Source: Saccostrea echinata (lineage: Eukaryota). Taken from it: a DNA stretch of 64,000 bases. The first letter of the stretch is position 1. Each line of letters begins with the position of its first letter. The notes beneath the pieces were generated by a model that saw nothing but the letters and a program-made list of their open reading frames with translations, was not told the origin of the DNA and did not search any database. The stretch covers positions 11,532,001-11,596,000 of the forward strand of contig NW_026889778.1 of NCBI RefSeq assembly GCF_033153115.1. The letters are read 5' to 3'. Made by a program: the position numbers and the translations under genes. Shown here piece after piece: positions 3,760-4,404 of the stretch.

Positions 3760-4302
3760 TCAACACAGAAATATACGTTGAGTTCTCTTCACATCGGATC
3801 GACAAATGGGGCAATACCGGAAGGTGGGAGCACATAATGAACAGCAACATACGTGTCCACAAGGGAGTAAAGCCATTTGTAATTCTCCCTCTAAACAAAT
3901 GTGACATTTTCCTGTGGCCTGAATCTCTGTAGAGGTTTGGTCTAGTAGAGGTTTAATTTCAGGTGAAACTTTGTATCCCACCCGGAGTAAATGGTTAATA
4001 AATACGATCATCACCCACTCACGTCCTTTATAGGTATTGATGTAAGGACAATTAGGGTTCCAATAAGCATGTTCTACATAAGGATCGTCTGTAGGTTTCC
4101 AGCGGTTTAAAGTCATACCACAATGAAAACAGATGGTCTTATCACTCACTCCCCTGTAATAAAATCCGGCTTTGGCTAGGTTGGGTAATAATCCTTTTAA
4201 AGACTCGGGCCATCCCTCTTTAAAGGTAGCTTCTCTCTTTAAGAGCAGAGCATAGTTAGGGTAAACAGGAACCCCCTCTGGCTCCCTAGAATGATTAGCC
4301 AT
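3760..4302 (-). CDS. Inhibitor-of-apoptosis (IAP) protein, single BIR plus C-terminal RING, intronless
   Basis: BIR: LAKAGFYY and C-x2-C-x16-H-x6-C (CFHC...H AYWNPN C). RING: CHIC...LLPCGHVCCCSLC...CPICR...RIFLC. The likely start is the ATG at 4302; the track's 4317 start is a TTG. Confidence 0.93.
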   Translation of the reverse strand: MANHSREPEGVPVYPNYALLLKREATFKEGWPESLKGLLPNLAKAGFYYRGVSDKTICFHCGMTLNRWKPTDDPYVEHAYWNPNCPYINTYKGREWVMIVFINHLLRVGYKVSPEIKPLLDQTSTEIQATGKCHICLEGELQMALLPCGHVCCCSLCAPTFRYCPICRSDVKRTQRIFLC

Positions 4303-4404
4303 GACTGAAGTGTTCAAATATGTTTACCCCCTTTTTATAACCCCCTTCATATTTTAGGGGTTTTCCCCATAAAATAATAACACATTTTGAAATACAGTAT
4401 GTTT

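Follow-up and report, generated by a model that had tools for sequence, protein, structure and literature searches.

The short intronless IAP gene described here is probably a standing accessory gene of one rock-oyster (Saccostrea echinata) Maverick/adintovirus lineage. Judged from its sequence, its frame seems to be kept along the replicating lineages of the element, and its product would likely be a minimal viral IAP that delays host cell death during element replication. The gene lies in a stretch of 64,000 nucleotides, called the window below.

The Maverick element and its IAP gene

The element is 24,628 bp long and spans the window and two neighbouring stretches (L031 and L032). Its features in the window are as follows.

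1..741, minus strand: 5′ part of the rve integrase (PF00665), which runs on into L031:9656-10000 with a chromodomain
738..1634, minus strand: conserved element ORF of 298 aa, no match in Pfam
2083..3030, minus strand: conserved basic element ORF of 315 aa, no match in Pfam
3076..3717, minus strand: A32/FtsK-type packaging ATPase, 213 aa (PF04665, E = 9.7e-6, above the cut-off)
3718..3762, minus strand: IAP stop and AATAAA, in the same place as the ATPase TATA-like box and TTCATT of IAP-less sisters
3760..4302, minus strand: intronless IAP ORF, 180 aa, with a short leader, a type II BIR, a linker and a C-terminal RING
4303..4308, minus strand: TCAGTC initiator-like motif immediately 5′ of the IAP ATG, found in 111 of 113 copies
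4331..4339 (read 4339-4331), minus strand: TATA box of the IAP cassette, sequence TATAAAAAG
4405..8548, minus strand: protein-primed PolB (pPolB; PF03175), in two pieces
8911..9351, no strand assigned: right TIR, 444 aligned bases, 94% identical to the left TIR at L032:4724-5151
9352..9357, plus strand: 6-bp TSD CCCGTC, the same hexamer also preceding the left TIR

Of the hallmarks of Mavericks and adintoviruses, pPolB, rve integrase, FtsK/A32 ATPase, long TIRs and a 6-bp TSD, which is the TSD length of Mavericks, are present. The element ends are AGTAGT. The pPolB of this copy is broken twice: its reading frame shifts near 7030, and an in-frame stop lies near 5977. Two presumed capsid ORFs, L031:3964-5385 (473 aa) and L031:6402-7409, are conserved across subfamilies. 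They had no useful match in Pfam, NCBIfam or PHROGs, and the 473-aa protein had none in PDB; by size and position they are putative jelly-roll major and minor capsid genes. A candidate adenain-like protease (L031:3461-3964) gave a weak match only, to ASFV pS273R (E = 0.069).

Other ORFs of the element were also recorded. Those at L031:1470-1835 and 2398-2871 are alike, and the second weakly matches the Rep family PF02407 (E = 3e-4). Further cargo ORFs lie at L032:9093-9587, 7519-8412 and 5068-5733 and at L031:8115-8567, and include a macrodomain-like ORF (DarG, E = 6e-4), a Cys-rich ORF, a Pro/Arg-rich ORF with a weak RING and a zinc-knuckle ORF ending inside the TIR. In four presumed-RNA contig runs, cover was low and patchy along the entire element, the non-coding TIR included. 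Outside the Maverick, the window contains a broken reverse-transcriptase element (11184-12822, minus strand, PF00078), presumably Penelope-like, a (TA)n run at 10193-10281, and presumed host exons on the plus strand at 18277-19475, which we take to resemble Sec61-alpha, and at 44089-44574, which are coiled-coil-like.

In the IAP itself, Pfam placed a BIR (PF00653, E = 3.5e-21) at residues 23-88 and a C-terminal C3HC4 RING (PF13920, E = 1.5e-11) at residues 131-173, and found no other domain; a type I BIR is absent. The CCHC zinc site of the BIR is present (C58, C61, H78, C85), and the RING can be aligned with those of cIAP1, cIAP2 and ML-IAP. Furthermore, the AlphaFold (AF2) model of the protein (pLDDT 83) lies 1.2-2 A from its best matches, XIAP BIR3, ML-IAP and DIAP1 BIR2, all of them Smac-, Hid-, Grim- or caspase-binding BIRs. 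Equivalents of the type II IBM groove residues W310, D/E314, E/Q319 and W323 were found by sequence.

The TATA box (TATAAAAA) is retained in 103 of the 113 family copies. By raw count, the element holds 17 TATA..Inr-like patterns, 16 of them at most 47 nt from an ATG. The AATAAA at 3760-3755 overlaps the IAP TGA; since the same site is the ATPase TATA-like box in IAP-less sisters, its role may lie in the ATPase promoter no less than in polyadenylation of the IAP. Apart from this possibly shared role, the original prediction described all three signals correctly (TATA box, TCAGTC just 5′ of the ATG, AATAAA overlapping the stop), and Pfam agreed with its picture of an intronless single-BIR plus RING ORF between core genes of the same strand, with pPolB upstream and the A32-type ATPase downstream.

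Copies of the cassette in the genome

Scoring the best 150 of 410 candidates from a genome search, we found at least 113 distinct loci of this IAP family. All 113 have one or more Maverick genes: pPolB lies upstream of the IAP in 111, the ATPase lies downstream of it in 107, and both flank it in 105. With the order pPolB-IAP-ATPase in 105 of 113 loci, the IAP is fixed cargo of the element.

Forty ATPase loci without an adjacent IAP match were also fetched. None has an IAP in the slot, and one (L167) has a fragment further upstream. Most of the 40 belong to a sister subfamily (pPolB ~86%, ATPase ~92%), and eight loci of this subfamily followed over 30 kb gave no IAP match anywhere. The pPolB frame is long in 8 of 38 sister-subfamily loci, and it reaches at least 1250 aa in 23 of the 83 IAP-family loci long enough to judge. 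Because the sister subfamily has also spread, the IAP is dispensable. When five IAP-less spacers were aligned, neither a poly(A) nor a TSD was seen at the cassette edges, and the ATPase TATA-like box occupied the place of the IAP stop and AATAAA. The IAP is a promoter-plus-ORF cassette, heritable but dispensable. Its presence depends on the subfamily, and recombination appears to exchange it between elements.

Two loci (L131 and L132) have pPolB and ATPase of the IAP-family type with the IAP missing, and L131, the one that was aligned, has the spacer of the sister subfamily; both are likely recombinants that swapped out the cassette. Meanwhile, a decayed distant Maverick (protein identity 32-56% for pPolB and 36-51% for the ATPase) has a broken IAP in the same slot (L127:4342-4797), which suggests that the slot is old. 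IAP relatives labelled S. cucullata are 60-66% identical, and in five gene models a 62-67% relative is fused to pPolB, to the ATPase or to further ORFs of the element, which indicates a cargo older than one species. Proteins of 158-175 aa labelled Ostrea edulis and others cluster with them in a quick tree (SH-aLRT 98). Over these relatives, identity was 60-66% for those labelled S. cucullata and 42-46% for those labelled Ostrea and others, and the BIR ligands are mostly kept.

No relatives of the IAP or of the presumed capsid were found in a viral contig set, and three distant fragments were matched in metagenome contigs. On two of these contigs (L211 and L212), a 38% BIR fragment lies within ~1.5 kb of a pPolB-like piece, possibly marking another IAP-bearing Maverick.

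Frame maintenance and sequence change

The IAP frame is open in 79 of the 113 copies, and all 12 Zn ligands are present in 69. Of 27 distinct stops or frameshifts, not one occurs in three or more copies, whereas 22 of 66 synonymous variants do (p = 2.6e-4; the two sets come from 113 and 83 copies, respectively). One apparent shared stop was most likely due to the single-step classing of a two-base S155Y variant. Distinct frameshifts per kb per 100 copies amounted to 40 in pPolB, 44 in the ATPase and ~35 in the IAP (19 events over 534 bp), so the short IAP is merely a smaller target. An intact IAP had been set against a dead pPolB; the pPolB of this copy is indeed broken, but with such similar densities the intact IAP is not special. 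Private variants are near neutral (dN/dS 0.88-1.13), which, together with a frameshift density like that of the core genes, shows that copies decay after insertion.

Variants shared between copies gave a different result. In the 47 copies that are frame-clean in all three genes, the shared N/S counts of pPolB (37/77), the ATPase (10/22) and the IAP (45/15) correspond to dN/dS of ~0.18, ~0.17 and ~1.1, and internal-branch M0 dN/dS for the IAP was 1.04. Taken over the whole gene, a value near 1 looks like the neutral evolution that the original prediction had named as a refutation, but the core is constrained and the frame is kept. Shared N/S was 36/6 in codons 1-88 versus 9/9 in codons 89-180 (p = 0.007, 47 copies), and 47/9 versus 21/13 in 83 copies (p = 0.024). 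The RING is the most constrained part of the IAP (3/5). In addition, columns conserved in 199 outside IAPs, mostly multi-BIR proteins from a representative search that also supplied some rows of the quick tree, took 23 of 92 private versus 4 of 68 shared amino-acid changes in 83 copies (p = 0.0012), an avoidance that was undetected in the 47-copy set (p = 0.71).

Shared changes are concentrated in the leader and in residues that line the BIR groove, with clusters at residues 3-13, 28-33 and 63-71. The densest 9-codon window, 63-71, holds 16 of 68 changes in 83 copies, a number that 0 of 20,000 random scatters reached. The excess of N over S is marginal in codons 1-88 (p = 0.049 and 0.053) and not significant in 63-71 (p = 0.06 and 0.20), and dN in codons 1-88 (0.195) is about the dS of pPolB (0.22), so constraint outside the core may be relaxed. 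A site-model test with our own code gave an LRT of 34.3 for the IAP versus 0 for the ATPase, a statistic inflated by strong recombination (four-gamete site pairs were 23% of close and 48% of distant pairs). The pattern is one of core constraint with fast change elsewhere, rather than neutral decay. Diversifying selection on the IAP is likely as far as sequence can tell, and the gene is likely functional, with a constrained core and a diversifying ligand surface.

The densest window falls on the ligand groove. By a gapless offset, IAP residues 64-67 and 69 equal XIAP BIR3 306-309 and 311. In XIAP BIR3, residues 306, 308, 309, 311, 314, 319 and 323 line the IBM groove, 307 forms a bulge and 310 is the floor (PMC6360406). 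The groove anchors are nearly fixed among the 83 copies (W68 in 81, D72 in 82, E77 in 83, W81 in 82), and Zn ligands and anchors show private changes only. S. cucullata-labelled proteins likewise vary at 64-66. Varying lining residues (64-67 and 69) beside fixed anchors would likely reflect shifting host ligands. These 83 frame-clean natural alleles form a rare population sample for an accessory gene of a Polinton whose changes centre on a known ligand groove, and the sample bears on whether Mavericks meet antiviral cell death as viruses do.

In a post hoc look at the lesions in the 113 loci, 22 of the 28 point lesions precede the last BIR ligand (p = 8e-4); with rearrangements included, 23 of 32 lesions do (p = 0.005). 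This skew may come from host selection against products that lack the RING, from homopolymer errors or from search bias.

A second IAP-bearing Maverick family and annotated host genes

A second Maverick family carries a BIR-only IAP with a long disordered leader at 14 loci (L126, L129, L130, L172-L174, L176-L179, L182, L183, L185 and L194). Thirteen of the 14 loci have an integrase at most 1.4 kb away from it, and 12 have PC4 at most 1.9 kb away. Its IAP is 51% identical to the family-1 IAP over the BIR and forms a separate clade with many further relatives (SH-aLRT 99) in the quick tree, which has 88 columns, excludes the decayed L127 IAP and the viral IAPs, and cannot resolve donors or two captures. 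At L183 and L194 (C14), the family-2 element is a mirror image about its ATPase with an IAP in each arm.

The best 150 of 290 PF00653 candidates comprised 99 of family 1, 14 of family 2 and 37 others; these 113 element-borne loci in 150 are not the true fraction of IAP genes, because a profile search favours unspliced BIRs. Among NCBI proteins named BIRC3-, BIRC7- or DIAP-like, 21 of the 22 tested are letter-for-letter products of element loci (17 of 18 for family 1 and 4 of 4 for family 2). The expectation that element IAPs inflate the apparent host IAP annotation was thus confirmed. No Maverick gene was seen over the 10 kb fetched for the host tandem clusters of two-BIR plus RING IAPs with very long exons (L116-L125, in C38, C44 and C28). 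Two of these clusters, C38 and C44, are mirror images and may represent a single region that was assembled twice.

Similar elements and the bivalve IAP expansion

Expansion of IAPs is a published explanation of bivalve stress tolerance, and intronless bivalve IAPs are ascribed to retroposition in the relevant passages of PMC7831173, PMC8917759 and PMC13159474. The words Maverick and Polinton are absent from the main texts of all three and from 10 supplements of PMC7831173, and Mavericks go unmentioned in the passages of bioRxiv 2023.06.11.544495 that we consulted. In the open literature, with subscription journals and Repbase outside the search, we found no paper linking bivalve IAP expansion to Mavericks. 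Meanwhile, Mavericks are put at 1.7-1.9% of the clam genome in the part of PMC8905726 consulted.

As described in the consulted parts of Song et al. 2021 (PMC7831173), the hard-clam IAPs of a "retroposition burst" and the BIR+PC4 "G3" type, called an innovation of clams and mussels, are dispersed, intronless, single-BIR, mostly silent and near DNA transposons. These features fit the family-2 element IAP, which adjoins PC4. The clam genes are read there as host retrocopies, whereas the family-2 IAP is borne by a Maverick. In the expanded-family table of that paper, which lists 13 PC4 genes, 8 of the 25 IAPs of one dispersed family bear a gene number next to that of a PC4 gene, with 0.02 expected, a figure that assumes ordinal gene numbers and that the dispersed family is the paper's intronless clade 1. 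This adjacency suggests Maverick cargo rather than retroposition. PC4 is the one Maverick link in the table, where the rows beside the IAPs include no integrase and nothing plausible as pPolB or ATPase, and the Swiss-Prot match listed there for the dispersed IAPs is mostly OsHV-1 ORF99; another mobile carrier is therefore possible.

Similar elements likely explain part of the reported bivalve IAP expansion. We also lean, with less assurance, towards a broader view in which the dispersed intronless "host" IAPs of bivalves are in large part proviral cargo, two or more Maverick lineages have IAPs of their own, one of them with its groove in an arms race, and the clam "retroposition burst" and BIR+PC4 "innovation" are Maverick genes. 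If so, IAP counts, duplication-mode statistics and the stress-adaptation arguments built on them need redoing. For other species, Maverick-borne IAPs offer a concrete, testable alternative to retroposition.

Possible function and alternative explanations

In the reading we prefer, the TATA and initiator-like motifs would give early IAP expression. The single type II BIR may bind N-terminal IAP-binding-motif peptides, either of host IAP antagonists or of processed caspases, and the RING would ubiquitinate the BIR-bound protein. Baculovirus IAP3, whose RING ubiquitinates the bound protein, is a model for such a delay of cell death. Host cell death would be put off while the linear element DNA replicates. 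After insertion, copies would decay like the remaining element, and annotators would then count them as host BIRC7/DIAP-like genes. The benefit may go to a cell-autonomous transposon as well as to an infectious virus. The capsid-like genes and the strong recombination speak for a possible virus-like mode of life. The original prediction concluded from the IAP that the lineage acted as a true virus. This cannot be deduced from the IAP alone, because the IAP-less sister subfamily has also spread.

The main rival is that the cargo is functional but mainly targets innate-immune signalling rather than apoptosis, through NF-kB, IMD- or RLR-type ubiquitination, in which cIAP and DIAP2 act. The same selection evidence applies to it, and the strong constraint on the RING (3/5) would suit it. 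The groove of XIAP BIR2 binds RIPK2 (PMC6360406), which leaves room for type II grooves with ligands other than caspases. However, the protein has a BIR and a RING only, with no type I BIR, the structures that match it best are BIRs that bind Smac, Hid, Grim and caspases, and its architecture is that of the compact viral IAPs MSV248 and Neodiprion NPV IAP, and we consider a mainly immune target rather unlikely. Still less probable, and largely refuted already, is that a once-useful captured gene is now under relaxed selection and leaving the lineage. A whole-gene dN/dS near 1, the sister subfamily without an IAP, and L131 and L132 with family-type core genes but no IAP could be so explained. 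Nevertheless, no disabling lesion is common to three or more copies, Zn ligands and groove anchors have private changes only, promoter motifs are retained in more than 90% of copies, and the relatives labelled S. cucullata (60-66%) and Ostrea (42-46%) mostly keep the BIR ligands.

It is very improbable that the copies persist by benefiting the oyster as domesticated stress-resistance IAPs, since private variants are near neutral (dN/dS 0.88-1.13) and a frameshift density like that of pPolB and the ATPase means that copies are not preserved after insertion; the 79 open frames with promoter motifs point the other way, and the skew of point lesions (22 before versus 6 after the last BIR ligand, p = 8e-4) hints that host selection sees the product. 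As for a one-off host retrocopy that landed in the element, with which an intronless gene and host-like names would agree, absence from sister copies and flanking TSD or poly(A) had been named as its signs. A sister subfamily does lack the IAP, yet the cassette edges have no poly(A) or TSD, 113 loci lie in the same element family and the cassette has its own promoter motifs; this origin is refuted. A minimal viral IAP delaying cell death thus remains the explanation we favour.

Comparison with known IAPs

The entomopoxvirus MSV248, Neodiprion NPV IAP, baculovirus IAP3 and IIV6 193R combine BIR with a C-terminal RING, are intronless and have a short leader, as here; baculovirus IAP3 has two BIRs. 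Such compact viral IAPs are the best BFVD matches, yet they are only 26-31% identical over the whole protein, and they reside in large lytic viruses, whereas the present IAP sits in an integrating 25-kb element. The OsHV-1 BIR proteins also come from an oyster-infecting DNA virus. Their identity is 23-29% to the family-1 IAP and 31-38% to the family-2 IAP, whereas oyster host BIRs are 45-47% identical to the element IAP over residues 12-109; the identities give no sign of OsHV-1 as the IAP donor (OsHV-1 is outside the tree). The host two-BIR plus RING IAPs (L116-L125) and ML-IAP/BIRC7 share a type II BIR and a RING with the element IAP, and in the tree the element BIR is placed close to the C-terminal BIRs of these proteins, with weak backing (SH-aLRT 83). 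However, the L116-L125 IAPs differ in their long frames, two BIRs, distant RING and tandem arrangement.

The closest precedent is the report of Bcl2 and IAP homologues in adintoviruses by Starrett et al. 2021 (PMC8502044). Its Fig S2 has, in the text layer, "IAP" labels ahead of the map names for Mytilus and Pinctada, so those IAPs are likewise accessory genes of bivalve Polintons/adintoviruses, and the presence of an IAP in a bivalve adintovirus is already known. The passages and figure labels consulted say nothing on protein domains, the slot, the number of copies, selection or host IAP counts. The present analysis adds the scale, the evolution centred on the groove, the naming of element copies as host genes and a testable re-reading of the bivalve IAP expansion.
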